Shown: positions 18,017 to 59,608, counted from the stretch's first letter. The stretch: DNA of 64,000 nt from Acidobacteriota bacterium (GCA_013203475.1 JABMNV010000189.1:19217-83216); one strand, 5' to 3'. The notes: generated from the letters alone by a model not told the origin. Translations and numbers: made by a program.

Positions 18017-18352
18017 CTATCCGACCAACTCAAAAAGCCCTTCAAGCACCTCGATGAGTTCCTCGTCCGAGACTCGGCCCAGGCGGCGACCGATGCGCAC
18101 GGTCGAGAGCGTTCGCACTTGGCCGATTTTCACCCACGACCGTTTTGGGAGCTTGGCCGCTCGCAGTTCCAGGGTCAACGGAAACTGCGCCCGAGGTTTT
18201 TGGCTTGTCAGAGCAACGGCAATCACTGTGCCCGATCGCTCGTTGAAGACATCATGGCTTAGCACCAAGACCGGCCGTGCGCCTGCCTGCTCGTGCCCGC
18301 GCACCGGGTTCAGGTCGGCCCAACGGACCTCACCTCTCAGTATTCGGGCCAT
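18017..18352 (-). CDS. mazF: MazF/PemK-family toxin endoribonuclease
   Basis: MARILRGEVRWADLNPVRGHEQAGARPVLVLSHDVFNERSGTVIAVALTSQ...KIGQVRTLS is canonical PemK/MazF. Confidence 0.9.
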   Translation of the reverse strand: MARILRGEVRWADLNPVRGHEQAGARPVLVLSHDVFNERSGTVIAVALTSQKPRAQFPLTLELRAAKLPKRSWVKIGQVRTLSTVRIGRRLGRVSDEELIEVLEGLFELVG

Positions 18353-18576
18353 GCGGTCTCGGATCCGAACGGCTCATCGGCGAGCTGACGCTCTTCGGCC
18401 GGATCGAGTTTGGCGCATTCTTCGGCCAAGCGCGTGCGGGCCAGCCGAGCGAGTTTCTCAGCCAGTGCCGTCTCGATCGCTTGGCTGCGGTTGCGGAATC
18501 GGGCGCGCGCGACAAGGTCGTCAACTCGGTCCAACAAGGTCGAGTCGAGAGTCAGAGCAACTTTGGTCTTCGGCAT
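18337..18576 (-). CDS. mazE: Ribbon-helix-helix (CopG/MazE-type) antitoxin
   Basis: ATG at 18576 (MPKTKVALTLDSTLLDRVDDLVARARFRNRSQAIETALAE...). Overlaps the mazF start by 16 nt. Confidence 0.75.
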   Translation of the reverse strand: MPKTKVALTLDSTLLDRVDDLVARARFRNRSQAIETALAEKLARLARTRLAEECAKLDPAEERQLADEPFGSETAWPEY

Positions 18577-21896: not shown

Positions 21897-22808
21897 ATGT
21901 CGAACGCGGAATCTATCCTGACAAAACAATCGCTTCCCACTCGTGACGCCCACGACCACCCATCGTCGACCAAACGGTTTGACGACGGTGGCCAATATCG
22001 CGTTGAGATTCCGTCATGTGAAGGGCCGGCTGCGATGCAGGCCGTGATCAGCGAGGCGGCTGTTCGGCAGGTGCCCGTGCATCGCGTGAGCCAGGGCAGC
22101 GGCATCATGCTGCAGACGGACCACGAAATCAGTGAGATGTTGGCGCTCGGTCGGGAACACGGTATCGAGGTCTGTCTGTTCGTCGGCCCTCGAGCCAGTT
22201 GGGATACGGGCGCGCAAGCCGTGTCGAGCGCTGGTCGTGTACTGGGCGCCTCGCTTCGTGGCGCTGATCAACTCGGCTACGGCATTGATGATGTCTTGCA
22301 TGGTGTGAAATTGGGGCTCAAGTCGATCCTGGTTGGCGATCTTGGTCACCTCAAAGTGCTCGGCGACATGAAACGGGCCGGCGACTTGCCGAAGGAATTC
22401 GTCCTGAAAACCTCCGTCACAATCGCGGCGGCCAATCCCGCCTCGGCCCGGGTGCTCGAGGATCTTGGCGCGACGTCGATCAACTTGCCGGTTGACCTGT
22501 CGATCGCCCAGATCGCGGCGATTCGGCAGGCCATTGATACGCCCATCGATTTCTACGTCGAAAGCCCCGATGACTTTGGCGGCGGTGTGCGGCACTACGA
22601 GGCCCCGGCGCTGGTTCGCGTGGCCGCACCCATCTATTTGAAATACGGCATTCGGAATTCGCCGGGTTTGTATCCCAGCGGTATGCATATCGAGGGGATG
22701 GTTGTGAATTTGTCCAAAGAACGCGTCAGGCGCGCCGCGATCAGCCTGGCGCTGCTCAAGCGATACATGCCCGACGCCGTCGCCTCACCCTATGGAGTAC
22801 GCAGCTAG
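21897..22808 (+). CDS. Uncharacterised conserved-looking protein (303 aa) embedded in the SDR/ALDH operon
   Basis: Clean ORF with good codon bias, 21 nt after the SDR stop. Its TAG shares a G with the GTG start of the ALDH gene (TAGTG, 22806-22810). An alternating beta/alpha pattern suggests a TIM-barrel-like fold. No family motif recognised. Confidence 0.6.
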   Translation: MSNAESILTKQSLPTRDAHDHPSSTKRFDDGGQYRVEIPSCEGPAAMQAVISEAAVRQVPVHRVSQGSGIMLQTDHEISEMLALGREHGIEVCLFVGPRASWDTGAQAVSSAGRVLGASLRGADQLGYGIDDVLHGVKLGLKSILVGDLGHLKVLGDMKRAGDLPKEFVLKTSVTIAAANPASARVLEDLGATSINLPVDLSIAQIAAIRQAIDTPIDFYVESPDDFGGGVRHYEAPALVRVAAPIYLKYGIRNSPGLYPSGMHIEGMVVNLSKERVRRAAISLALLKRYMPDAVASPYGVRS

Positions 22809-24271
22809 TGATTCATTCAATTAATCCGCGGACCGGAGACCAACGTCAGCCTGTTCAGGAATCGTCGCCCCTGGACGTTCACGCCGCAGTCGAACGCGCA
22901 GAGGCAGCCGCGCGGGGCTATGCCCAGTTGCCGTTAGCCACACGTGCGGCGTTTCTCAGAGCCGCGGCCGACGCCCTCGAGGCGAATCGTGTCGCCATCG
23001 TCGAGACCGCCGACTTCGAGACAGGCCTTGGGCCTGCTCGGTTCAATAGCGAATTAGGCCGAACGACGGGCCAGCTTCGGGCGTTTGCCGACGTGGTGGA
23101 AAAGGGGAGTTTTCAGGGTGTCATCCACACGCCCGCGGATCCGGCTGCCACGCCTCCGTGTCCAGACCTCCGGCGTCTGCTCATTCCCATTGGGCCCGTC
23201 GGCGTCTTTACGCCCAGCAACTTTCCACTCGCGTTCGGCGTGGCCGGTGGCGATACGGCGTCGGCGCTGGCCGCAGGATGCACGGTCGTCGTGAAGGGCC
23301 ATCCGTCTCACCCCAATTCGTCGGCCCTGACCGCGCAGGCGTTTGTTGCCGCTGCCACACAGGTGGGAGCGCCCGATGACACGTTGACGCTGGTGCAGGG
23401 ACGTGCGCCCGAAGTGTCTCAGGCTCTGGTGAATGCCCCGGGCATCCGTGCGATTGCGTTCACCGGATCTGAGAGGGTTGGACGACTGCTGTACGACCTG
23501 GCCGCCGCGCGCGCAGAGCCAGTGCCGTTTTACGGCGAGCTGGGTAGTCTCAATCCGGTGTTCGTTGGAGCTGCGGCCGCGTCGGCGCGAGGTGCTGACA
23601 TTGCCAAGGGACTTGTCGCATCAATGACGTTGGGTTCGGGCCAGTTCTGTACAAAGCCCGGCGTCGTGTTTGTGCCGACCGGTCCGACAGGCGACGCGGT
23701 GGTGGCGTCGATGGTCGCCGCCGTCGCGACGCTTGAGCCTGCCGTCCTGCTCAACGAAGGCCTGCAGACCTCGCTCAACTCAAAGATCGCCGCCAGTCGC
23801 GGCGTCAGCGGTGTGAGCGAGTCGGTGGCCACAGTCCAGGTGCCGGACGCAGGATGCTTTGCTGCGCCACGGATGTTTGTTGTGGACGTGCGAACCTTCT
23901 TCGCGAGCCCGGCCCTTCGCGAAGAACACTTCGGTCCGGTCTCAATCGTCGTCCGATGCCATGCCGACGAAATGGCCGTCGCGGCGACCAACTTTGATGG
24001 CCAGTTGACCGCCACCATTCATGCCGACGCCGGCGATCTTGAGTGGGCGACCAAACTGCTTCCGGTGCTGGTGGACAAGGCCGGACGGATTGTCTGGAAC
24101 GGATATCCGACTGGCGTCTCGGTCGTGCCGGCCATGCACCATGGCGGTCCGTATCCGGCCAGCACCAACTCGTTGCACACGTCGGTGGGGACGACGGCCA
24201 TTCGGCGGTTCTTGCGGCCGGTCACGTTTCAGGACGTTCCGGAGGCGCTGCTGCCGTCCGCGCTCACCTAG
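22808..24271 (+). CDS. NAD(P)+-dependent aldehyde dehydrogenase, alpha-ketoglutaric semialdehyde dehydrogenase-like
   Basis: 487 aa. Catalytic Glu in YGELGSLNP and Cys in GSGQFCTKPG, with the KGHPSHP motif. Length and N-terminus are typical of the KGSADH subgroup. Confidence 0.85.
   Translation: MIHSINPRTGDQRQPVQESSPLDVHAAVERAEAAARGYAQLPLATRAAFLRAAADALEANRVAIVETADFETGLGPARFNSELGRTTGQLRAFADVVEKGSFQGVIHTPADPAATPPCPDLRRLLIPIGPVGVFTPSNFPLAFGVAGGDTASALAAGCTVVVKGHPSHPNSSALTAQAFVAAATQVGAPDDTLTLVQGRAPEVSQALVNAPGIRAIAFTGSERVGRLLYDLAAARAEPVPFYGELGSLNPVFVGAAAASARGADIAKGLVASMTLGSGQFCTKPGVVFVPTGPTGDAVVASMVAAVATLEPAVLLNEGLQTSLNSKIAASRGVSGVSESVATVQVPDAGCFAAPRMFVVDVRTFFASPALREEHFGPVSIVVRCHADEMAVAATNFDGQLTATIHADAGDLEWATKLLPVLVDKAGRIVWNGYPTGVSVVPAMHHGGPYPASTNSLHTSVGTTAIRRFLRPVTFQDVPEALLPSALT
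23325..23376 (+). repeat. Source copy of a 52-nt perfect direct repeat (inside the ALDH gene)
   Basis: ccctgaccgcgcaggcgtttgttgccgctgccacacaggtgggagcgcccga is identical to 25389-25440. It encodes LTAQAFVAAATQVGAP in both places. Confidence 0.95.
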
Positions 24272-24275
24272 ACAG

Positions 24276-26316
24276 ATGGCCCGCACAAGAACTGCTTGGG
24301 TGTGGTTCGCGCCGCTGATGCTCGTGCCGGGGCTCGCTGCGCAGCAGGACGCCGGTCCAGGGACCGGAGTGATTCTGGGCAAGGTCATTAATGCGGAGAC
24401 CAAGTCGCCGCTGTCTGGGGTCTTGGTTGAGGTTGGGCCAGGGCGACGCCTCCGCGCCCTGACCGACAGCGAGGGACGCTATGTGTTCCGCCTGCTGCCA
24501 CCGGGTACCTAGTCGATTGCCGCCTCAACGGGCGGGAACGGCTTTGAGCCGTCCGGGTTTCTGCCGGCCAGCGCCGCGCCAACGGTCCGCTCCAGGATCT
24601 GACACTTCCCGCCGGTGGCGTCGTCGCCGATGCTGTGATTTCGCTCTGGAAGGGCGCCACGTTCGATGGAACGGTCTTCGACGAACGCAATGAACCGGTC
24701 GTCGGCATGGTTGTGTCCGCCGTACGACGGACGAGTGATGGCGTGTTGACCAGCGGTCCGACGACGCGCACGGATGATCGCGGTGCGTTCCACATCAGTG
24801 CGTTGTCGCCTGGTGCGTCTGTCGTGGTCGTGCCTCAAACCCAGGTGCTGCTCCCGGCCTCCACCGCGATCAGCCCCACATCCGATCCGCTGTTGAGCCG
24901 ACAGCTCGCAGCTGCAGGGGCGCCACCGCCCAGCCAGTCGGGCGTGGTCTTCGGGGGAGTGGTGTCGTCATCGACTGCCCCGGTGGCGGGCAATGCCCTG
25001 CAGGCAGCCAGTCAGAGTCGACATGTCTACCAATCGACATTTCATCCTGCCGCCACCACTCTTGAGAAGGCCAGGGTCGTCATGGTGACGAGCGGCGAGG
25101 CTGTGACCGGTGTCGATGTTCAGTTGGCGCCGGTCTCAGCGGTATCGGTCAGCGGAACGTTGCTGGACGTCGGCATGCCGGTCGCGAACTTCGGTGTGCG
25201 ACTGCTGCCGGCTGATACCAAGGACGGGTCAGAGGTGCTGGAGGTCTCGTGGACCGCGACCGATGTCTTGGGCAAATTCACCTTCCCGCTTGTGCCTGAG
25301 GGGCAGTATCGACTCTCTGCGCAACGACGGACGCGGGTGCCGTCGGCCGTGGCACCAAACGGCGCGGTGACGTATGCCGACCCGCCGTCCCTGACCGCGC
25401 AGGCGTTTGTTGCCGCTGCCACACAGGTGGGAGCGCCCGAAGTCGGTTCGACGATCAATCCCAAGGCCCCGGAGGTCAACCACTGACGAACGTTATGATT
25501 TCGGTGGTGAATACCCGCACGCGAAGCACGTGGACCAGCCCCGGCATGGTGCGCCCTGACGCCAATGGACACTTCAGCCTGTCGTCGTTTCCCGAAGGCG
25601 AGTACGCCTTCATTGGTCGCGGCACCGACAGCACCACTCCGGGCACGCGCGACATGCCCCTGTACGCTGAAGCACGGTTCATCATGGCTGGCGACGACCT
25701 GTCCGGCATCATCATTCAGTTCGAACAAGGTGTCTCGGTCGGAGGTCAGGTCGTCGTCGCCGAGGGCGACCCCGTTCCCAACGGCATGCAACTGCGCTTG
25801 ATGCCCGTCGGCAGCATTCCTGGATCGGCCGCCCCACCTGCCTCTCAGAGTGTACGCGATGATGGATCCTTCGAGTTCACGGGCGTGGCACCTGGGCGTT
25901 ATCGCCTGACGGCGATCGGGACCACCAATCTCACGCTCCGTTCAGCGCTCATCGGTGACACCGACACGCTTGATGACGCCTCCGAGGTGATTCCGCGCGG
26001 CGACGTGACCGGCATGCGCGTGGTGCTCACCTCGCGTCCGACGCAGATTGCGGGCACGTTGTTCGATGGCCTGGGCCGACCGGCGCCCGAGTACGCCGTG
26101 GTCGTCTTTTCGACCGACCGGGCACATTGGGCCAACGCTCCCCGGCGTATGACCGGCCTGGTGAAGTTGGACTCGCGTGGGCAATACCGCATCACAGGGC
26201 TGCCCGCGGGCACGTACTACTTGGCCGCCGTCACCGACGCAGAGCCGGCGGAGTTGTCCGATCCGCTGTTCCTTGAGCAACTGGCCACCGCCGCCGAGGT
26301 CAGTGACAGTCAGTAG
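24276..26316 (+). pseudogene. Carboxypeptidase-regulatory-like (CarboxypepD_reg) multi-domain secreted protein, with multiple lesions
   Basis: Signal peptide plus VILGKVINAETKSPLSGVLVEV...TDSEGRYVFRLLPPGT. Lesions in order: in-frame TAG (24510-12), frameshift (~24550-24566), ORF 24635..25486, a 52/59-nt ectopic insert, then ORF 25495..26316 with further GxYxL domains. Confidence 0.75.
25389..25440 (+). repeat. Ectopic copy of the 52-nt ALDH gene segment, inserted in the CarboxypepD_reg pseudogene
   Basis: Perfect identity to 23325-23376. The 7 nt to the left are 4/7 identical. Confidence 0.95.
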
Positions 26317-26360
26317 ATCACGACCTACCAGATGTGGATGCGTGCCGTGGGCGACGCCGC

Positions 26361-26441
26361 ATGACCGAGCGCGCCGCGCAACTGGTCGAGTCTGTGTTTC
26401 CTGATGTGCCTGTCCATGGCGAATTGGTAAAACATCAATGA
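26361..26441 (+). mobile_element. IS91-family transposase internal fragment
   Basis: MTERAAQLVESVFPDVPV matches the conserved (E)RAAHLVDxVxPxVPVRQWV block of IS91 transposases. Similarity ends after PV. Confidence 0.5.
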
Positions 26442-26499
26442 ATCGCTCTGATGTTCTCGTCGGCTGAGCCGGTCGTTTGTGAGACAGCAACGGTCGCGG

Positions 26500-26646
26500 G
26501 CTCGACCGTTTGCGCGACCGATTCAGGATCAGCAACTGGTGCTTGACCAAGAGAGATTCGGCCATCACTGAACGCAGACCGTCGGGCCCCAGAAGCCGCG
26601 CCAGCGTCGACAACATGTGAACCAGCAGAATCGTCAAGTCGCGCAT
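26500..26646 (-). mobile_element. Transposase/integrase N-terminal fragment (family uncertain, IS481/IS3-like)
   Basis: MRDLTILLVHMLSTLARLLGPDGLRSVMAESLLVKHQLLILNRSRKR is a recurrent N-terminal leader of integrase-core transposases. The catalytic domain is absent. Confidence 0.5.
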
Positions 26647-26795
26647 GGGGCAAGTCTAGCGATCAGGTCCAGGACCACGACACTTGAAATATCATCGAAT
26701 TACGCGGCAGATAGTAATTCGCCACCCACAGGCGTCCGTGTACTACGGCGCGGCCGTGTTTCTCCGCGACATGGACCTGAATCGTGAAGTCGCAC

Positions 26796-27086
26796 TCAGG
26801 TGAGATACCGCTCAATCTCGAGCGCGCCGTGCAACACCCCGAGCACATCGATGTCGCGACTTGGCCTGATGAGATATGCGATGCGGTAATGACCGTAGAG
26901 CAGAATCCGAATATCACGATCGTCTCGGTAGCGATGACCGACCTCCGGGAAGGTCAACAGGATCTGGGCTCGCTGGTGAATGGCAGTCACGATCCGGTGG
27001 GCGGCGTCCGCATTGTTGGTTGCGATGTACTCGTGAATATCCTTCAACCAGCGCTGGGCTTCAGCCGTCCAGACTATTTCCGCCAC
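26796..27086 (-). CDS. parE: ParE/RelE-family toxin
   Basis: MAEIVWTAEAQRWLKDIHEYIATNNADAAHRIVTAIHQRAQILLTFPEVGHRYRDDRDIRILLYGHYRIAYLI...IDVLGVLHGALEIERYL. Confidence 0.85.
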   Translation of the reverse strand: MAEIVWTAEAQRWLKDIHEYIATNNADAAHRIVTAIHQRAQILLTFPEVGHRYRDDRDIRILLYGHYRIAYLIRPSRDIDVLGVLHGALEIERYLT

Positions 27087-27271
27087 GACTCGATGGTCCG
27101 CTTCATCGTGTCGTGCGACACCGTCCGACCGGCGTCGGCGTCCGCGAGCCCGCGGTCGACCATTCGGGCGAAGGCCAGTTCGCGAAGCAATTCATCGTAC
27201 GAACTGTCATCGGGTTGTTTGTCGATCAGTTCGATCATCTGGGCTTTCGGGGTGGCTACCTGTCCGCTCAT
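27074..27271 (-). CDS. Cognate antitoxin (65 aa)
   Basis: ATG at 27271 (MSGQVATPKAQMIELIDKQPDDSSYDELLRELAFARMVDRGLADADAGRTVSHDTMKRTIESWRK). Overlaps the parE start by 13 nt. Confidence 0.65.
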   Translation of the reverse strand: MSGQVATPKAQMIELIDKQPDDSSYDELLRELAFARMVDRGLADADAGRTVSHDTMKRTIESWRK

Positions 27272-27351
27272 GCCGACATTGTAGCCCGCACCACGACTCA
27301 GCGCAGGCCCCCCAAGGGTCGAAGAAAGGCACCGAATTCCAAGGCTGTACC

Positions 27352-27480
27352 GGTGCTCCCCCGCGATCTGCAACCCGCGAATATCAAGGTCCGAGCCGAT
27401 GGCACCGTCGACAAGCGCAGCGACTTGTGGGCATTCGCCGTCGTGCTGCTCGAGATGCTGACGGGCCGTCGCGTCGTCGA
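27352..27480 (+). pseudogene. Ser/Thr protein kinase remnant (catalytic loop to helix F, internally deleted)
   Basis: VLPRDLQPANIKVRADGTV (HRDLKPxN-type loop) is joined directly to SDLWAFAVVLLEMLTGRR. The DFG...APE segment is missing, with no N- or C-terminal parts. Confidence 0.5.
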
Positions 27481-27503
27481 CGTGCCCGTCGGTCAACCGC
27501 CCG

Positions 27504-50127: not shown

Positions 50128-52170
50128 CTACCAGATGTGGATGCGCGCCTCGGGTGCCAGATAGAGCGCGTCGCCTTCTTTGACGTCGAACGCGGCGTAC
50201 CAGGCGTCCACGTTACGGACAATGCCGTTCACGCGGAAGTAGGGCGGACTGTGGGGGTCGGTCAGCAGGCGCTGCCGCATCGCGCCCTCGCGGGTCTTCG
50301 ACTGCCACGCCTGCGCAAAGGCCAGGAAGAAGCGCTGGTCGCCTGTCAGTCCGTCGATGACGGGTGCCGCACCGTGCTTGGCCTGGTAACGCTGATAGGC
50401 CGCATACGCCATCTCCACGCCACCCAAGTCCCCGATGTTCTCGCCCATGGTCAGCGCGCCGTTGATCTTCACGCCAGGAATCGGCTCGTACGCGTTGTAC
50501 TGATAGCCGAGCGAAGACGTGCGCTGGGCGAACGCTTCCTTGGCGGCGGGCGTCCACCAGTTGGTGTATTTGCCGCTGCCGTCGAACTGGCTGCCCTGAT
50601 CATCGAAGCCGTGACCGATTTCGTGGCCGATGACGGCACCGATCGCGCCGTAGTTCACGGCCGGATCCGCCTTCGGATCGAAGAACGGCGGCTGCAGGAT
50701 GGCCGCCGGGAACGTGATCTGGTTCAGCAGCGGGTTGTAGTACGCGTTCACCGTTTGCGGCGTCATGTCCCAGAGCGACCGGTCCACCGTCTTGCCGAGC
50801 CGCGAGAGTTGAAGGTGCCACTCGAATTCGCCGGAGCGCGTCGCGTTGCCGAGCGGGTCGGCGCGATCGACCGTCAACGACGAATAGTCAATGTACGTGT
50901 CCGGATGACCGATGCGCGGATCGAAGGCGATGAGCTTGGCGAGCGCCTTCTCTTTGGTCGAGTCATCCATCCAGCTGTTGGCGGTCAGGCGCTCTTCAAG
51001 TGCGCCTCGCAGGTCAGTGATGAGCTCGGCCATCTGGGCCTGGCTCTCTGCCGGATAGTGTCGCGCCACATAGATTTCACCGACGGCTTCGCCCAGCGCG
51101 CCATTGACGAACTGCACGCCACGCTTCCAGCGTTCGCGCTGCTCCGGCACGTCATTCAACGTCTTGGAGAAGAAGGCGAAGCTCGCTTCGTCAAACGCCT
51201 TCGGCAGCACGTTGGCGTGGTCGCTGACAAAGCGGAAGGCCACCCAGTCTTTCCAGGTCTGCAGCGGCGTCGAGGTCAGCATCTTCCCGGTCGCGGTGAT
51301 GGCCGTGGTCTCGGCCATGATCACGGTCGGAATGTCGCCCAGGCCGAGCTCGTTCATGATCAGGTTCCAGTCGAACTGGGGCGCCAGCTTCGCCATTTGC
51401 GCCCGGTCCATGGGGTTGTAGATGGCCTGAATGTCCCGCGAGCGCTCCGGCGCCCAATGCTCCTTCGCCAACGCGGTTTCAAGCGCGACGATGGCGTCGG
51501 CCTTGGTCGCGGCGTCAGGGATGCCGGCTAACTCCTGAATGTGGACGGCATAGTCGCGATAGGCTTTGCGAAACGCGTCATATTTCTCACCCTCCAACAG
51601 GTAGTAATCGCGACCACCCATGGTCAAACCGTCCTGGAAGGCGGCGGCGATGTAGCGTGTCGGATCAGCAAAGTCGGGCAGGATTCCAATGCCCAAGGGT
51701 GCCGCGTACCCCACGGTGGCGAAGAGCACCTGCAGGTCGGTGAGATCCTTCACGGCGGCGATCTTCGCGAGATGTGGTTCGAGAGAAGTGGTGCCGCGGG
51801 CCTCGATGGCTGCCTCGTCCATCCAACTCGCGTACATGTCGCCAATCTGCTTGCCGCTGGCGCCATAGAGATCCGGCTTTGCCGCCAGGTCTGTCATCAG
51901 ATCGCGGACCTGCTGTTCAGCCTGGTCTGCCAGGATGACGCCGACGCCGGCGGATGTGCGGTCAGCGGCGATCTCCGTGCGGTCGTTCCAGGCGCCGTTG
52001 GCGAATGTCCAGAAATCGTCGCCCGGCTTGGTGTCGGCCTTCTGGGCCGTCAGATCGACGCCGAACGCGCCGTAGCGCGGTCCCTCCGCCGGGGCCTCCT
52101 GGGCGCACGCCGTGATGGCGCACGCAAGTGTCATGGCGGTCGACAGGCGAACGAGAATTCCGACTTTCAT
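50128..52170 (-). CDS. pepO: M13-family zinc metallo-endopeptidase (PepO / endothelin-converting-enzyme-like), lipoprotein or secreted
   Basis: VIGHEIGHGFDDQG (HExxH), ENIGDLGG (ExxxD), and the C-terminal W. N-terminus LACAITAC is a lipobox-like signal. Confidence 0.9.
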   Translation of the reverse strand: MKVGILVRLSTAMTLACAITACAQEAPAEGPRYGAFGVDLTAQKADTKPGDDFWTFANGAWNDRTEIAADRTSAGVGVILADQAEQQVRDLMTDLAAKPDLYGASGKQIGDMYASWMDEAAIEARGTTSLEPHLAKIAAVKDLTDLQVLFATVGYAAPLGIGILPDFADPTRYIAAAFQDGLTMGGRDYYLLEGEKYDAFRKAYRDYAVHIQELAGIPDAATKADAIVALETALAKEHWAPERSRDIQAIYNPMDRAQMAKLAPQFDWNLIMNELGLGDIPTVIMAETTAITATGKMLTSTPLQTWKDWVAFRFVSDHANVLPKAFDEASFAFFSKTLNDVPEQRERWKRGVQFVNGALGEAVGEIYVARHYPAESQAQMAELITDLRGALEERLTANSWMDDSTKEKALAKLIAFDPRIGHPDTYIDYSSLTVDRADPLGNATRSGEFEWHLQLSRLGKTVDRSLWDMTPQTVNAYYNPLLNQITFPAAILQPPFFDPKADPAVNYGAIGAVIGHEIGHGFDDQGSQFDGSGKYTNWWTPAAKEAFAQRTSSLGYQYNAYEPIPGVKINGALTMGENIGDLGGVEMAYAAYQRYQAKHGAAPVIDGLTGDQRFFLAFAQAWQSKTREGAMRQRLLTDPHSPPYFRVNGIVRNVDAWYAAFDVKEGDALYLAPEARIHIW

Positions 52171-53507: not shown

Positions 53508-53936
53508 ATGGGACAAACCTACCAGTCAATCGTTATCAACGCTCCCGTCGACGACGTGTGGAATCGTCTCAAGGATTTCCACGACTTGTCCTGGGCGCCC
53601 AACGTCATCACGAGCGTCGATAAGGTCGGTGACAAGAACGGCACCGATATCGGTGCCAAGCGCATACTCAACGGCGCCTTTCACGAGACCCTGCTCGAGT
53701 TGCACGACGACAGCCACACCCAGGTCTATAGCATCGACGACGGCCCGCCTCCCGTGTCGAAGGCCGATGTCGTGAACTACGTCGGCCGCGTCGAGTGTCA
53801 CGCGGAGACAGAAGGCGGCGGTACGTTCGTGGCGTGGTCCTCCAAGTGGGACAATGCCGACGGAGGCGCGGCTGATTTCTGTCACAACGTGTGCGTGGCC
53901 CTCCTTGGGGACCTCAAGAAGTCGCTTGAGCCGTGA
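53508..53936 (+). CDS. SRPBCC-superfamily small protein
   Basis: SIVINAPVDDVWNRLKDFHDLSWAP... shows the Bet v1-like pattern. The stop overlaps the next start (GTGA, 53933-36). Confidence 0.7.
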   Translation: MGQTYQSIVINAPVDDVWNRLKDFHDLSWAPNVITSVDKVGDKNGTDIGAKRILNGAFHETLLELHDDSHTQVYSIDDGPPPVSKADVVNYVGRVECHAETEGGGTFVAWSSKWDNADGGAADFCHNVCVALLGDLKKSLEP

Positions 53937-55084
53937 AGATCCTCCGTGCTCGCACTACGGTCGTGGGCACGCCGTGGCGGGAGCTTGTCTTTCTAGAGCT
54001 CGAATCTGACACGGGCCTGATCGGCACCAGCGAAGTGCGCATGGTCAGCCGCACCGACACGCTGCTGGCGTGTATTGACGAGTTGGCACCGCGCCACGTC
54101 ATTGGGGCTGACCCGTTCGATGTCGAGCGGTTGGCGTGGAACATCCAGCGCGCGGAGTACGACCGGCCTGGAGAAGTCTCGCAGTCGGCGCTGGCGTGTT
54201 TCGACGTGGCCTGCTGGGACCTCATGGGCCAGTCGCTCGGCGTGCCTGTCTGGAAGTTGCTCGGTGGCAAATTCCACGAGCGTGTGCCTGCCTATGCCAA
54301 CGGCTGGTATCAGGCCGAGCGCGATCCGTCGGCGATCGCCGCGCTCGCCACCGCCGTCGTCGCGAAGGGCTACCGAGGCCTGAAGCTGGATCCCTTCGGG
54401 CATGCCAGCGCCGAACTGTCCTCGGCCGACCGTCGACATGCGATGGCGATCGTGGGTGCCGTGCGCGACGCGGTTGGGCCGGATGTGCAGCTCATGCTGG
54501 AGATGCACGGCCGGTTTACGCCATCGACGGCGGCGATTGTGGCGAAGGCGTTGGAGCCCTTTGAGCCGGAGTGGATCGAAGAGCCCACGCCGCCTGAAAA
54601 CGCCCTCGCGTATCGCGCGGTGCGCAACGCGACTCATCTGCCGATTGCCACGGGCGAGCGCGCGCATGTGATGGAAGACATGCGCGGGTTTATTGAGGGT
54701 GGTTTGGTTGACATCGTGCAGGTGGACCTGACGCATTTTGGTGGATTCCTGCCGATGAAACGCCTCGCCGGGTGGGCCGATCTGTACGCGCTGAACCTGG
54801 CACCCCACAACGTGTGCGGCCCGGTTGGCACGATGGCGAACCTGCACTTTGCCGTGGCAACGCCCAACTACAAGGTGCTGGAACATTTCAACGACTTCGC
54901 TGATTCCTGGGTGCACGAATTGGTGGACCACTCACCGCGTATTGATCCTGCCGACGGCTGTTTTGTCGCGCCCGATCGGCCAGGGCTGGGCCTCGCTCTC
55001 AATCATGAGGCGTGCGCTCGTCATCCCCGCACGGGCGGCCGCATCAAACTGTTTGAAGAGGGCTGGGAGCGACGACAGGAGTAG
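53933..55084 (+). CDS. Enolase-superfamily dehydratase (mandelate racemase/muconate lactonizing enzyme family; sugar-acid dehydratase-like)
   Basis: ACFDVACWDLMGQSLGVPVWKLLGG, GYRGLKLDPFG, LMLEMHGRF, WIEEP, IATGER and VDIVQVD are metal-ligand and catalytic blocks. Confidence 0.85.
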   Translation: MKILRARTTVVGTPWRELVFLELESDTGLIGTSEVRMVSRTDTLLACIDELAPRHVIGADPFDVERLAWNIQRAEYDRPGEVSQSALACFDVACWDLMGQSLGVPVWKLLGGKFHERVPAYANGWYQAERDPSAIAALATAVVAKGYRGLKLDPFGHASAELSSADRRHAMAIVGAVRDAVGPDVQLMLEMHGRFTPSTAAIVAKALEPFEPEWIEEPTPPENALAYRAVRNATHLPIATGERAHVMEDMRGFIEGGLVDIVQVDLTHFGGFLPMKRLAGWADLYALNLAPHNVCGPVGTMANLHFAVATPNYKVLEHFNDFADSWVHELVDHSPRIDPADGCFVAPDRPGLGLALNHEACARHPRTGGRIKLFEEGWERRQE

Positions 55085-55088
55085 TCCG

Positions 55089-55970
55089 TTGGACGTTGAA
55101 CTCGCACTCGACATCAGAACCGAACTGGGTGAAGGCCCGCTGTGGGACGACCAACGACAGCGCCTGTTGTTTGTCGACATCATGCAGGGCCACGTGCATG
55201 AGTTCGATCCCGTGACGGGCGCTCATCGCACAGTCGCGTTCCCCTGGTCCGTTGGTGCGGTGGCGCTCTGCGCAGATGGTGGGTGGTTGCTCGCGGCTGC
55301 CGACGGGTTCTATCGCGCCGATCCGAACACGGGCGCGACGAGCCTGGTGGCGGCGGTGGAAGCAGCCTTGCCCGGCAACCGCATGAATGATGGCTACGTG
55401 GACTCGCGTGGTCGCTTCTGGGCCGGCACCATGGGGATGACCACGATAGGTATGAAAAAAGTGCGCAATGCCGGCACACTCTATCGCCTGGATTCTGACA
55501 CCTCGGTTCATGCGATGGTGACCGAGGTGTCCACGTCCAACGGGATCGACTGGAGCCTCGACAACCGAACGGCCTATTACATCGACACGCCAACCGGACG
55601 CGTCGATCAGTTCGACTTTGATCTGGACGCGGGCACAGTGTCCAACCGTCGCCCCTTTGCTGAGATCGCCCCAGACGATGGCTCCCCAGATGGCCTCATC
55701 GTTGATGCGGAAGGATTCGTCTGGGTCTGCCTGTGGCGAGGGAGTGCCGTACGTCGGTACGCACCTGACGGCCGGCTGGACATGGTCATTGCCATCCCTG
55801 CGGCGCAAACGACCAAGTGTGCCTTTGGTGGTCCTGATTTGGATGAGTTGTTCATTACTTCCGCGTGGATTGGATTGACCGACCAGGAACGCGCGGCCCA
55901 GCCTCTGGCCGGCGGTCTGTTTCGTTGTCGGCCCGGCGTCAAAGGCCGGGTACCGAACCGATGGTCATAA
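55089..55970 (+). CDS. SMP-30/gluconolactonase/LRE-family lactonase
   Basis: ELGEGPLWDDQRQRLLFVDI, NRMNDGYVDSRGRFWAGTM, SNGIDWS and PDGLIVDAEGFVWVC. The start is uncertain: TTG 55089 is the first candidate after the upstream stop. Confidence 0.8.
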   Translation: MDVELALDIRTELGEGPLWDDQRQRLLFVDIMQGHVHEFDPVTGAHRTVAFPWSVGAVALCADGGWLLAAADGFYRADPNTGATSLVAAVEAALPGNRMNDGYVDSRGRFWAGTMGMTTIGMKKVRNAGTLYRLDSDTSVHAMVTEVSTSNGIDWSLDNRTAYYIDTPTGRVDQFDFDLDAGTVSNRRPFAEIAPDDGSPDGLIVDAEGFVWVCLWRGSAVRRYAPDGRLDMVIAIPAAQTTKCAFGGPDLDELFITSAWIGLTDQERAAQPLAGGLFRCRPGVKGRVPNRWS

Positions 55971-56088: not shown

Positions 56089-57597
56089 TTACTTGCTCGC
56101 CGTGGCCGATCGAATAAATGACACAAGGTCCTTCTTCAGGGCCGCGTGTGCCGACGGGCGGATGTACATCATGTGTCCGCCTTCGTAGTAGCCGTACGAC
56201 ACACGGTCGGTGATCTGGCGGTCATAGGCCAGGTGCGTGAGGTTGAACTCGGCGCCACCGACGTACGTGGCCATGTCGTAGTACCCACTCACCAACATCA
56301 ACTTCAGGAACGGATTAATTGCCATGGTTTGGCGCAGTGCGTCCGTGGTGTCCATGTAGCGGTTCTGGACGTAGGTCCATGGCCGCACGTCGCCCGACGT
56401 CGGATACCGCAAGTCTGAATCCCACTTCAGTTCGTTCTTGATGTAGTCCTGGAACATCGCCACGTAGGCGCCCTTGAGCGCCGTGTTCGACGGATCGAAT
56501 TCCTGACTCTCGCCGGCCGCATCCAGATCGAGGGCGGTAAACCGGCTGTCGAGTCGCCCGACGACCAGGCGCTGGTCGCGCAGCAGTTCTTTGCGGAACC
56601 GCCCAGAACTCACTCTGAGGTTCGCCGAGAGGATGAACTCGGACGACAAGCCGGTGAATTCCGCCAGCCGTCCCGCCATCACGCGGCGCTCCGCGTCAGT
56701 CAGCGTATTCCCTTTGGTGAGCGCCAGCATGTAGTCGCCCAGCGCGAAAACTTTGGCCTCAGCGACCACGTCCTTGAGCGCCTTTTGTTGCAGCTCAGGG
56801 CCGAGCTTCTTGTGATACCACGCCGTCGCCGCAAAGGTCTGGATCTGCACCGCCCAGGCGATGTCGTTGTTCGGTGCCGGGGACAACGTCTGGTACGTCA
56901 ACAGCGCAGACAACAGCACGACGCCATTCAGTTCGACGCCATGTCTGGCCTGCAGGTCCTGGGCGAGCCCACCAGACCGAATCGTCCCGTAGCTTTCGCC
57001 GATCAGGAATTTCGGCGACGGCCAACGGTTGTACGCCTTGAGATAGCCCGCGATGAAATCGCCAAACGCGGTGATGTCGCCGTCCTGACCATGGAACTGG
57101 GCATTGTCAGTGCCCGCCGTGGCACGGCTGTAGCCGGTGTCGATAGCGTCCACGAACACCAGGTCCGACTCGTCGATCAATGAGTTGGGATTGTCGACTA
57201 ACTGATACGGTGGCGCCGGCTGAAAGCCTTCGTCCGCCATCTTGACGACGCGCGGGGCAAAGGATCCCATGTGCAGCCACACTGACGCTGACCCCGGACC
57301 GCCGTTGAAGAGGAATGAGACCGGCCGCGTGGCCGGGTCTGCGTCGTCTCTGGTATACGCGACAAAGAACATGCGTGCCGCCACGTCTCCACCGACCGAC
57401 CGGATCGGAATCGTTCCCGCAGTGGCCGTGTAGGCAATGTCCTGACCACCAAGGCGCATTGTGTGTGACGTTGCGGATGCTGGCGTATCGTCGGCGGCTG
57501 CCACTTCGTGTCGCGCGGCCGGTGCTTGTTGCGCGGTGAGCGAGGGCACGAGCGCCGTGATTGCGACGACGGCGGCAGCGAAGAATCGTTTCATCAT
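56089..57597 (-). CDS. Secreted S10-family serine carboxypeptidase
   Basis: Signal peptide. FLFNGGPGSASVWLHMG and FLIGESYGT (nucleophile Ser), with a C-terminal GGHMMY. Confidence 0.85.
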   Translation of the reverse strand: MMKRFFAAAVVAITALVPSLTAQQAPAARHEVAAADDTPASATSHTMRLGGQDIAYTATAGTIPIRSVGGDVAARMFFVAYTRDDADPATRPVSFLFNGGPGSASVWLHMGSFAPRVVKMADEGFQPAPPYQLVDNPNSLIDESDLVFVDAIDTGYSRATAGTDNAQFHGQDGDITAFGDFIAGYLKAYNRWPSPKFLIGESYGTIRSGGLAQDLQARHGVELNGVVLLSALLTYQTLSPAPNNDIAWAVQIQTFAATAWYHKKLGPELQQKALKDVVAEAKVFALGDYMLALTKGNTLTDAERRVMAGRLAEFTGLSSEFILSANLRVSSGRFRKELLRDQRLVVGRLDSRFTALDLDAAGESQEFDPSNTALKGAYVAMFQDYIKNELKWDSDLRYPTSGDVRPWTYVQNRYMDTTDALRQTMAINPFLKLMLVSGYYDMATYVGGAEFNLTHLAYDRQITDRVSYGYYEGGHMMYIRPSAHAALKKDLVSFIRSATASK

Positions 57598-58571
57598 GGC
57601 GGGTCTCCTTGTGTTGATGGCGTGGTGTCGAGCGTGTTGCGAATCGCGGTGTAAAACGTCTCGCCGATGAGGCGAAGGCCTTCCTCGGTTGGATGGAGGT
57701 CGTCGGCGCCGACGTATCGATCGATGTCGGCATTCATCGCCGAGAAGACGTCAACCAGCGTGGCGCCTCGTCGATCGGCGAGCGACCGGATCTCGTCGTT
57801 GAACCGGGGAATCCTCTCGGCGTTGTCGCCGTACGCGCCGCCCGCTCTGGCGGGAGAGATCGTAGCCAGAAAGACCACGACGCCCTGGCTCTGGGCGAGG
57901 CGAACCATGTCGTCGAGGCCGTCGATGGCCCGCACCCGATCAGCCGAGGTTCCAGCGACATCGTTCGTCCCTTCCATCAGCAACAGAACTTGTGGACGCT
58001 CGGAGGACAGCAATTCCGCCAACCGACTGAGTCCGTCTGCGGCTCTCTCTCCGTTCACCCCCTGAGTACTCACGGTGAACGTCTGAGCGGTGTATCGAGC
58101 GCTCAGGAGCTCTCCGAGACGCTCGGTGTACGGCGGACACGTGGTTGGCGACAGGCCGCAGCGGCCGAACGTAATGCTGTCACCAAAGGCGAGAAACGAG
58201 GTCTTCGAGATGCGAGGTGCGATGGAAACGGTGACGTTGAAGTTGCACGTCGCCTGACGGACCAGCGCGTCTGTAGCCGTGCATGTCACAACCGTGGATC
58301 CAACCGGGAAGTTCGCGCCCGGCGCTGCGGAACACGTCACCGCAACCGGCGCCTGGCCGCCGCTGGCGGCCGGCACGGCAAACGTCACCGGCACAGACAG
58401 GCCATCGAGTGAGGCGGCCTGCACAGAGGCGGGGCACGACACCGCGGGCGCTGCCGGGGTCGGCGGCGCGGGCGTTGTGGGAGACGACGAGCCGCACGCG
58501 GCCATCGCCATCACGCTGATTGAGAGAAAAAGTCGTTGAAATGTCCGCACAATATGAATCCGCGCGGCCAA
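57594..58571 (-). CDS. Lipoprotein: HYR/Ig-like N-terminal domain plus SGNH hydrolase domain (paralog 2)
   Basis: Lipobox SVMAMAAC. VSCPASVQAASLDGLSVPVTFAVPAASGG...VVTCTATDALVRQATCNFNVTV. FLAFGDSITFG, LLMEGTND and DDLHPTEEG. Confidence 0.8.
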   Translation of the reverse strand: MAARIHIVRTFQRLFLSISVMAMAACGSSSPTTPAPPTPAAPAVSCPASVQAASLDGLSVPVTFAVPAASGGQAPVAVTCSAAPGANFPVGSTVVTCTATDALVRQATCNFNVTVSIAPRISKTSFLAFGDSITFGRCGLSPTTCPPYTERLGELLSARYTAQTFTVSTQGVNGERAADGLSRLAELLSSERPQVLLLMEGTNDVAGTSADRVRAIDGLDDMVRLAQSQGVVVFLATISPARAGGAYGDNAERIPRFNDEIRSLADRRGATLVDVFSAMNADIDRYVGADDLHPTEEGLRLIGETFYTAIRNTLDTTPSTQGDPP

Positions 58572-58579
58572 TTCTATAG

Positions 58580-59608
58580 TCAGTCGCGGCCCAGCGCCTC
58601 CCCAGTGGGCGTATTGTCGAGGGCGTTGCGAATCGCGGCGTAAAAAATCTCGCCCATCCGACGCAGTCCCTCCTCGGTGGGGTGGAGATTGTCGGCGCCG
58701 ATGAGGGAGGGAATATCCGTCACCATCGCCGCGTAGACATCGACGAGCGTGGCGCCACGGCTGGCAGCGATTGCCCGGATGCCGTCGTTGAAACTGGGGA
58801 TCAGGCCGGCCACCACATCGCGGTTCGGTGTGCCCGCCGGTGCGGGAGATCGCTGCGGCGGAATCGTGGCCAGAAACACGATCACACCTTGGGCCTGCGC
58901 CGCTGTCGCCATACGGTCGAGGGCGCCGAGGGCGTGCTGGAAGGTCAGCGTCGGCGTCAGTGCGCCAAAAAAGAGGTCGTTCGCGCCTTCCATCAGGAGA
59001 AGCACCTCGGGCGAGTACCGCGCGAGCTCACTCGGAAGCCGATCTTGCCCCGCCAACCGGCCCAGCGGAATCGCAATATCGTCAGCGGCAATTTCTCCAG
59101 GAATCCCTACGTTCGTGATCGTAAACGTCTGGCTCGCATACCTGGCTTCAAGCAATTCGCGCAGGCGGACGGTGTAGGGCGGACACTCCGCAGGCGCGAT
59201 GTTGCAGCGACCAAATGTCAGGCTGTCACCGAATGCCAGGAACTTGGTCTTCAGGATGCTCGGCCGCGTCGCCACCGTCACAGTGAAACTGCAGACACCC
59301 TGCCGCTGAAACCCATCAGTGGCGGTGCAGGTGACGATCGTCGAGCCGAGAGGAAAAGTCGCACCGGGCTGTGCCGTGCACGTGACCGCCGAGACCGGCG
59401 CCTCTCCGCCTACCGCGGTCGGTACCGTGAATGTGACCGGGAGCGCGGCGCCAGTGACTGACTCCACCGTGATTGAGGCAGGACAGGACAGCGCGGGAGA
59501 GTTGGCCTGGACCAACGGGCCTGTCGGCTTCGATCCGCAGCTCGCCACGGCCAACAGGCTCAGCAACACGAATATGCGACAGGTGCAACGGGTGGTAGGC
59601 AATGGCAC
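58580..59608 (-). CDS. Lipoprotein: HYR/Ig-like N-terminal domain plus SGNH hydrolase domain (paralog 1)
   Basis: Lipobox LLAVASC. LSCPASITVESVTGAALPVTFTVPTAVGG...IVTCTATDGFQRQGVCSFTVTV. FLAFGDSLTFG, LLMEGAND and DNLHPTEEG. Confidence 0.8.
   Translation of the reverse strand: MPLPTTRCTCRIFVLLSLLAVASCGSKPTGPLVQANSPALSCPASITVESVTGAALPVTFTVPTAVGGEAPVSAVTCTAQPGATFPLGSTIVTCTATDGFQRQGVCSFTVTVATRPSILKTKFLAFGDSLTFGRCNIAPAECPPYTVRLRELLEARYASQTFTITNVGIPGEIAADDIAIPLGRLAGQDRLPSELARYSPEVLLLMEGANDLFFGALTPTLTFQHALGALDRMATAAQAQGVIVFLATIPPQRSPAPAGTPNRDVVAGLIPSFNDGIRAIAASRGATLVDVYAAMVTDIPSLIGADNLHPTEEGLRRMGEIFYAAIRNALDNTPTGEALGRD

Follow-up and report, generated by a model that had tools for sequence, protein, structure and literature searches.

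A 52-nt copy of aldehyde dehydrogenase coding sequence at the junction between remnants of two CarboxypepD_reg genes in an Acidobacteriota bacterium

Error-prone repair in eukaryotes is commonly recognised by templated insertions at the junctions of deletions. In animals and plants, DNA polymerase theta (Pol theta) end joining and synthesis-dependent microhomology-mediated end joining (SD-MMEJ) leave a copy of an immediately flanking template exactly at the junction, with minimal homology at the switch. Most of these insertions are shorter than 25 bp, and bases of unassignable origin beside them give the junctions a 'patchwork' appearance (PMC12426944). For bacteria, the literature that we found comprises laboratory template switching, nonhomologous end joining (NHEJ) and a survey of pseudogene indels (PMC1428787, PMC6379672, PMC6054270). 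The junctions of lac amplifications in E. coli were assigned to microhomology-mediated long-distance template switching, and CTG or its complement was present in 27/31 of them (PMC1428787). In bacterial pseudogenes 43% of small deletions lie between microhomologies of 2-11 nt (PMC6054270), and foreign fragments can be inserted at breaks by NHEJ (PMC6379672). The literature found on templated insertions was almost only eukaryotic, and a natural templated insert in a bacterial chromosome was not found in it. Here we describe a stretch of 64,000 nucleotides from an Acidobacteriota bacterium (GCA_013203475.1 JABMNV010000189.1:19217-83216), referred to as the window. Within it, 52 nt of an aldehyde dehydrogenase (ALDH) gene occur a second time 2 kb downstream, at the junction between the remnants of two CarboxypepD_reg genes, A and B.

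The locus resembles the products of Pol theta end joining and SD-MMEJ in that a nearby template was copied exactly at a deletion junction, with putative minimal homology at the apparent switch and with adjacent bases that have no assignable origin. It differs from them in that the patch is 52 nt long, the template lies 2 kb away and the host is a bacterium. Fork stalling and template switching (FoSTeS) and break-induced replication mediated by microhomology (MMBIR), first proposed from the E. coli lac amplification, are alike in being bacterial and in having switches that span kilobases. The E. coli events used G-rich microhomologies of 4-15 nt, often with CTG (PMC1428787), and the probable microhomology in the window is CCCTG. 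Those events were simple duplication joins, with one complex amplicon reported (PMC1428787), and were selected in the laboratory, whereas the window would record one switch followed by another, with DNA lost overall and a short insert copied in, as a natural allele that appears to be fixed. The scars of bacterial NHEJ and alternative end joining (A-EJ), and pseudogene deletions, share with it a non-homologous junction and the loss of DNA in a decaying gene. They differ in consisting of small untemplated additions or supplied cassettes, and no endogenous 52-nt copy of a neighbouring gene is reported in PMC6054270 or PMC6379672. The locus adds a natural case to a known class of scar that is poorly documented in bacteria; it is not a new kind of element.

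Positions 23325-23376, inside the ALDH gene, and 25389-25440 on the plus strand, the ectopic copy (filler) at the A/B junction, are identical at 52/52 nt, as the original prediction from the sequence had stated, and the match is not extendable by one base on either side. The copies are in direct orientation, 2,064 nt apart. Each lies in codon phase 1 of its frame and codes for LTAQAFVAAATQVGAP. In a self-comparison no other exact direct repeat of the window exceeded 19 nt, and ∼2e-21 pairs such as this one are expected by chance. Outside the 52 nt, identity falls to 4/7 on the left, again in agreement with the prediction, and to 7/13 on the right. The 11/20 matching flank positions exceed a codon-phase-matched null mean of 5.8 (P ∼0.014), a post hoc value for which the flank window was picked after the data had been seen. 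This similarity is a weak hint that imperfect homology may have guided the switch.

The donor gene is an intact NADP-type ALDH gene of 487 aa (22808..24271, plus strand), identified by Pfam Aldedh (E = 3e-55) and by orthologs with 75–78% identity that are equal in length and collinear with it. The donor segment itself (23325..23376, plus strand) codes for ...(A)LTAQAFVAAATQVGAP(D)... and is native to the gene. ALDH orthologs have SSELTAKAFRAAAAKVGAPADTL at the residues where the window has SSALTAQAFVAAATQVGAPDDTL, with no indel. At the nucleotide level the segment is 67% identical to that of the relative L087, which is ordinary for a gene whose mean is 70%. The pattern TS..a......GaP.g..L..G is common to ∼30 more distant ALDHs. 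The patch peptide, in contrast, was present in 0/17 aligned CarboxypepD_reg homologs. Because the segment is conserved in ALDHs and absent from the CarboxypepD_reg homologs, the ALDH gene is the template and the pseudogene copy is derived; judged by this conservation, the direction of copying is unambiguous. The central claim of the prediction, an ectopic templated copy of ALDH coding DNA, was upheld by these comparisons.

Several other origins for the repeat were considered and rejected. The ALDH gene was rejected as recipient, since orthologs and distant ALDHs have the segment conserved and collinear. A peptide native to CarboxypepD_reg proteins, a possibility that the prediction had raised against itself, was rejected on the 0/17 result. 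Homologous gene conversion between paralogs was rejected, as the ALDH and CarboxypepD_reg genes are unrelated and identity drops immediately outside the 52 nt. A mobile or repeated element, such as a miniature inverted-repeat transposable element, a repetitive extragenic palindrome or an insertion sequence end, was rejected because the repeat occurs only twice in 64 kb, the donor copy is part of the conserved coding sequence of ALDH, and neither a significant fold nor an Rfam match was found. Rfam gave no matches in 20-30 kb of the window, and the DNA fold of neither repeat copy went beyond shuffled controls (z = -1.2 and +0.3). As neither an Rfam family nor an unusual fold nor an intact gene product is present, no function is implied. 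We regard the patch as a mutational scar with no evident function.

The recipient had been predicted to be a single CarboxypepD_reg gene broken by the insertion. This part of the prediction was not upheld, as the two flanks of the patch come from two different paralogs. A search with the reconstructed protein produced 112 homolog matches, among them homologs of ∼640 aa, some labelled Vicinamibacterales. The region 24276-26316 consists of the 5′ ∼60% of gene A followed by the middle and 3′ part of gene B. In the alignment, the upstream part of the window follows the P0001-P0018 type (A) up to ...VTYADPPSL, where the homologs have ...VTYAEPRTL, and the BLASTP alignment of the A fragment to P0015 stops at this point (AEPRTL/ADPPSL). 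From GPGGQPLTNVMISVVNTRTRS on, the window follows the P0019/P0021 type (B), starting at their residue ∼290. The transthyretin-like domain is found twice, out of register, with the B fragment repeating a domain already present in the A fragment.

The A fragment (24276..25393, plus strand; tblastn and BLASTP) covers residues 1 to ∼396 of ∼640, and the B fragment (25462..26298, plus strand; tblastn and alignment with P0019 and P0021) covers residues ∼289-566 of 584. Using tblastn, residues 13-400 of A_L002 (640 aa) matched 24333-25405 with 53–61% identity, in two segments (residues 13-100 at 24333-24563 and residues 105-400 at 24503-25405). Residues 289-566 of B_L002 (584 aa) matched 25459-26295 with 65.6% identity (E = 3e-117). 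In four relatives (L001, L002, L089 and one JGI contig) full-length A is followed directly by full-length B in the same orientation, the stop codon of A overlapping the start codon of B. The last ∼244 codons of A and the first ∼288 codons of B are absent from the window, and because the two genes are full-length tandem neighbours in these relatives, ∼1.6 kb is missing from it. The A/B junction is confined to ∼25394-25458 (∼65 nt), and the 52-nt copy occupies it. By comparison with the relatives, the patch is at the junction of a ∼1.6 kb deletion across the A/B boundary. Both fragments have decayed further. In the A fragment, TAC has become the nonsense codon TAG at 24510-24512, and a 46-nt deletion (junction ∼24564-24565) shifts the frame and removes the conserved VTGxGHLIAPYLNGGF; both lesions are common to the near-identical contigs L003 and L004 described below. 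The B fragment is without its last ∼18 aa.

The idea of an insertion into one intact gene came from the reading frame. Removal of 25382-25440 (59 nt) does join ORF 24635..25486 to ORF 25495..26316 without a stop, as predicted, and leaves a single frame open over 540 aa. No gene is restored in this way. The read-through product would join residues 1 to ∼396 of gene A to residues ∼289-566 of gene B, out of domain register, and a native fused A/B architecture was found in 0 of the 112 homolog matches. Excision of 25388-25440 (53 nt) also opens the frame, while 52- and 55-nt excisions do not. Because the ORFs occupy different frames, with the downstream one already open at ∼25300, any excision of 3n+2 nt should join them. 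The frame restoration is accidental and carries no weight for a former intact gene. Given A-type sequence upstream and B-type sequence downstream, a domain duplicated out of register, the missing ∼240 C-terminal A codons and ∼288 N-terminal B codons, and the further inactivating lesions in the A fragment, we consider 52–59 nt inserted into one intact CarboxypepD_reg gene to be extremely improbable. The lesson is that an open frame after in-silico excision is no proof that an insertion broke a gene. Filler DNA from illegitimate repair or replication, as first suggested, is still the best reading of the patch, but it lies at the junction of a ∼1.6 kb deletion and is not a simple insertion.

The junction was found in many assemblies. 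The exact U32-like protein encoded beside ALDH in the window was carried by 17 contigs. A 71.6-kb ENA scaffold (L003) is 99.91% identical to the window with 0 gaps and has both copies and the junction. An 18-kb JGI contig (L004) is 99.88% identical with 0 gaps and has the same junctions. L004 has a C>A single nucleotide polymorphism (SNP) at 25395, changing T to N, in the pseudogene copy only; its ALDH copy is unchanged. The same T>N change is present in P0247 (NCBI) and in P0249 (JGI), the latter from an 18,136-nt contig of the same size as that of L004. The 283-aa ORF that reads through the patch was found as 7 sequence variants on at least 23 contigs from NCBI, ENA and JGI, with the patch peptide in 7/7 variants and T>N in 2/7. 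The source names indicate a metagenome-assembled genome of uncultured Acidobacteria, and one carrying contig came from an ENA run labelled aquatic metagenome. Exact-protein look-ups of the window ALDH, SDR and 283-aa ORF gave no matches.

An assembly chimera had been named as the alternative to a real insertion. It is excluded because the same junction is present on at least 23 contigs in several SNP haplotypes, with one SNP private to the patch copy. The window, L003 and L004 share the same two junctions without gaps and with differing SNPs, and the seven ORF variants come from three collections. A chimera would need both junctions to be false within 52 nt, without a shared k-mer beyond the repeat. 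Its best support is the 832-nt MEGAHIT contig L090, from which it appears that the repeat can yield, or coincide with, an aberrant join. We give practically no credence to a chimera or other sequencing artefact as the source of the patch.

SNPs were enriched in 24272-26795, which held 8/24 sites in 12% of the compared span (P = 0.0055). The positions in this pseudogene and junk stretch are 24662, 25275, 25395, 25494, 25566, 25746, 26446 and 26763. Such an enrichment is expected for non-functional DNA, and the accumulation looks neutral. We propose that the deletion-insertion allele is fixed in the sampled population, one of wild freshwater Acidobacteria, and is drifting neutrally.

Contig L090 (ENA ERZ964670, ERR2206771, contig k127_61156, 832 nt) is an observation in its own right. 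It consists of window 22723-23376 joined to 25389-25618, so that a single copy of the 52-mer fuses the 5′ part of ALDH to the gene B fragment that follows the patch. Its product, P0238 (204 aa), is ALDH residues 1-189 plus EVGSTINPKAPEVNH. Recombination between the two 52-nt repeats would delete exactly these 2,064 bp. L090 is either a real deletion variant that kills ALDH or a low-coverage chimera made by a short-read assembler. The direct repeat is a potential substrate for a 2,064-bp deletion that destroys the ALDH gene, and L090 marks it as a trap for short-read assemblers.

At the left junction the window reads GAC CCG CCG TCC CTG / ACC GCG... and the ALDH gene reads TCG TCG GCC CTG ACC GCG.... 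Gene A homologs have E-P-R-T-L where the window has D-P-P-S-L, and for this reason TCC CTG is most simply native gene A sequence. It is probably native to gene A as well as identical to ALDH, which would give an overlap of CCCTG (25389..25393, plus strand), a putative 5-nt microhomology for the left switch that lies within a 9/11 match (CGCCGTCCCTG vs CGTCGGCCCTG). On the right, the copy ends in ...GCGCCCGA and is followed by 21 nt of junction DNA (25441..25461, plus strand; AGTCGGTTCGACGATCAATCC) to which neither hand count nor window search assigned a source. By hand count these 21 nt have ∼29% identity to gene B of the relatives, compared with ∼76% for the next 21 nt, and no source was found in the window even with 3 mismatches. 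They could be a diverged gene B linker, or a second filler derived from outside the window or from the deleted DNA.

A short exact copy, a template 2 kb upstream, direct orientation, placement at a deletion junction and a start in microhomology together make the signature of a templated insertion. We consider it on balance probable that the patch is templated filler made as the deletion formed, in a single event primed at the putative CCCTG. The ancestor would have had tandem paralogs A (∼640 aa) and B (∼584 aa), encoding secreted CarboxypepD_reg-repeat proteins, downstream of ALDH. One illegitimate event would then have removed the ∼1.6 kb that stretch between A codon ∼397 and B codon ∼288. 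In this event a free or nascent 3′ end, ...CCGTCCCTG in gene A, would have annealed to the near-identical ...CGGCCCTG in ALDH, 2,064 nt upstream on the same strand, and been extended by ∼47 nt of ALDH sequence. Dissociation would have been followed by joining to gene B or by resumed synthesis within it. Such a microhomology-primed template switch could have been replicative (FoSTeS/MMBIR-like) or have taken place during synthesis-dependent end joining, and both fit equally.

The serious rival, and the main one, reaches an identical end product in two steps. A 2,064-bp tandem duplication of 23325-25388 would have formed at CCCTG, joining 25388 to 23325, and a later ∼3.7-kb deletion into gene B would have left just the first 52 nt of the second copy. 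The direct orientation and local source of the patch fit a duplication, and the spacing of the copies equals the proposed unit. The left join 25388/23325 is exactly a tandem-duplication join, end of unit to start of unit, although this does not discriminate between one step and two. Each step also has a precedent, in the microhomology-joined duplications of E. coli (PMC1428787) and the microhomology-linked deletion bias of bacterial pseudogenes (PMC6054270). The locus has at least one other deletion, that of 46 nt. Two independent rare events would nevertheless be required at one site. A 2-kb tandem duplication is lost fast by homologous recombination unless it is selected. Because of this instability the second rare deletion would have to precede the loss of the duplication, which counts against the two-step route. 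The duplication intermediate was seen in 0 of the at least 23 contigs, and all seven ORF variants give the same 283-aa product, although an intermediate that has gone extinct is possible. We regard the two-step route as possible but doubtful.

End joining of a free fragment has different difficulties. Here Ku/LigD NHEJ or Ku-independent A-EJ would have ligated a free double-stranded ALDH fragment of ∼52 bp, for example a degradation product of the sister chromosome. NHEJ captures DNA fragments in chromosomal breaks of Sinorhizobium meliloti (PMC6379672), and the patch does sit at a junction where flanking DNA was lost. A free fragment offers no reason for a source 2 kb away, for direct orientation or for a start in a 9/11 match, and the reported errors of NHEJ are additions of a few nucleotides (PMC6379672). 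A co-oriented 52-nt insert from 2,064 nt upstream that starts in such a match is unlike the expectation for Ku/LigD NHEJ, although a single case is a weak test. Of the window ORFs, ∼16 were scanned against Pfam, and Ku or LigD was not found among these. We think this route very unlikely. A further reading, which we judge rather unlikely, is that a replicative rearrangement with several switches (MMBIR or chromoanasynthesis-like) took place, of which the patch is one segment that can be seen. Across 24272-26800 the order is gene A fragment, 52 nt of ALDH, 21 unassigned nt, gene B fragment, ∼25 nt that are likewise unassigned, a 28-nt M13-like piece and an unverified transposase-like stub. If this reading were true, bacteria without Pol theta would have a pathway for the repair of breaks or forks in which tens of nucleotides are copied from ectopic templates at kilobase distances, and such scars could be mined genome-wide in pseudogenes.

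Several points weigh against a single templated insertion made as the deletion formed. The same final structure can be reached by two ordinary steps. The right junction has no demonstrable microhomology, and the 21 nt next to it have no found source. Neither a pre-event allele nor a close relative was found in the collections searched, in which gene A reached at most ∼60% identity and gene B ∼65%. An ALDH scan of genome contigs gave no close genome (best match 62% identical), and metagenome contig scans with the left-flank 28-mer and with the gene A fragment protein were both empty. Because there is no pre-event allele, the breakpoints and the microhomology are putative and the single event is an assumption. 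To our knowledge, bacteria do not have Pol theta. In eukaryotes, templated insertions of this kind have been tied experimentally to that polymerase (PMC12426944).

In the relatives L086, L087 and L088 the ALDH gene is followed directly by MR_MLE and gluconolactonase (SGL) genes. The window orthologs of these two genes are at 53933-55075 and 55095-55964, with 91% and 75% amino acid identity respectively. A 29.7-kb block (24272-53932) splits this conserved sugar-acid operon, and the decayed A/B pair lies at its left edge. Gene boundaries at both edges are tight, with a spacer of 4 nt behind ALDH and, ahead of MR_MLE, an overlap of stop and start in GTGA.

Just past the end of the truncated gene B is a 28-nt piece (26324-26351, minus-strand sense) that matches the last codons and stop of an M13 peptidase gene (50128-52170, minus strand) at 25/28 positions, with a 19-nt exact core (PTARIHIW-stop vs PEARIHIW-stop). 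A paralog remnant seems more likely than a second filler, because the similarity sets in 1 nt outside the stop codon and 1/3 differences is synonymous. At ∼26500-26646 (minus strand) the start of an ORF reads MRDLTILLVHMLSTLARLLGPDGLRSVMAESLLVKHQLLILNRSRKR, with the rest of the gene missing. This stub, which may resemble the N-terminus of an integrase-type transposase, had no Pfam or NCBIfam match. It is followed by a toxin-antitoxin-like pair at 26796-27496 (minus strand), made up of ParE (96 aa) and an upstream 140-aa ORF for which Pfam and NCBIfam gave no match. A second such pair, a PemK-type toxin with an RHH antitoxin, is at ∼18017-18576 (minus strand), as seen among the genes called in L003 and L004. 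At 57519-59554 (minus strand) a tandem pair of GDSL-lipase paralogs accounts for direct-repeat family D2, with 81% identity over 94 nt, and matches a GDSL pair downstream of the ALDH operon in L087.

The window offers a clean natural case of this class of scar. Both the donor and the recipient can be seen, separated by 2 kb, it is clear which was copied from which, and the allele is present in many independent metagenome assemblies. It also provides a search image for surveys, namely an exact patch of 20–100 nt at the junction between pseudogene fragments. For the organisms themselves, it means that complex deletion-insertion events occur, and can be fixed, in a lineage of uncultured Acidobacteria.

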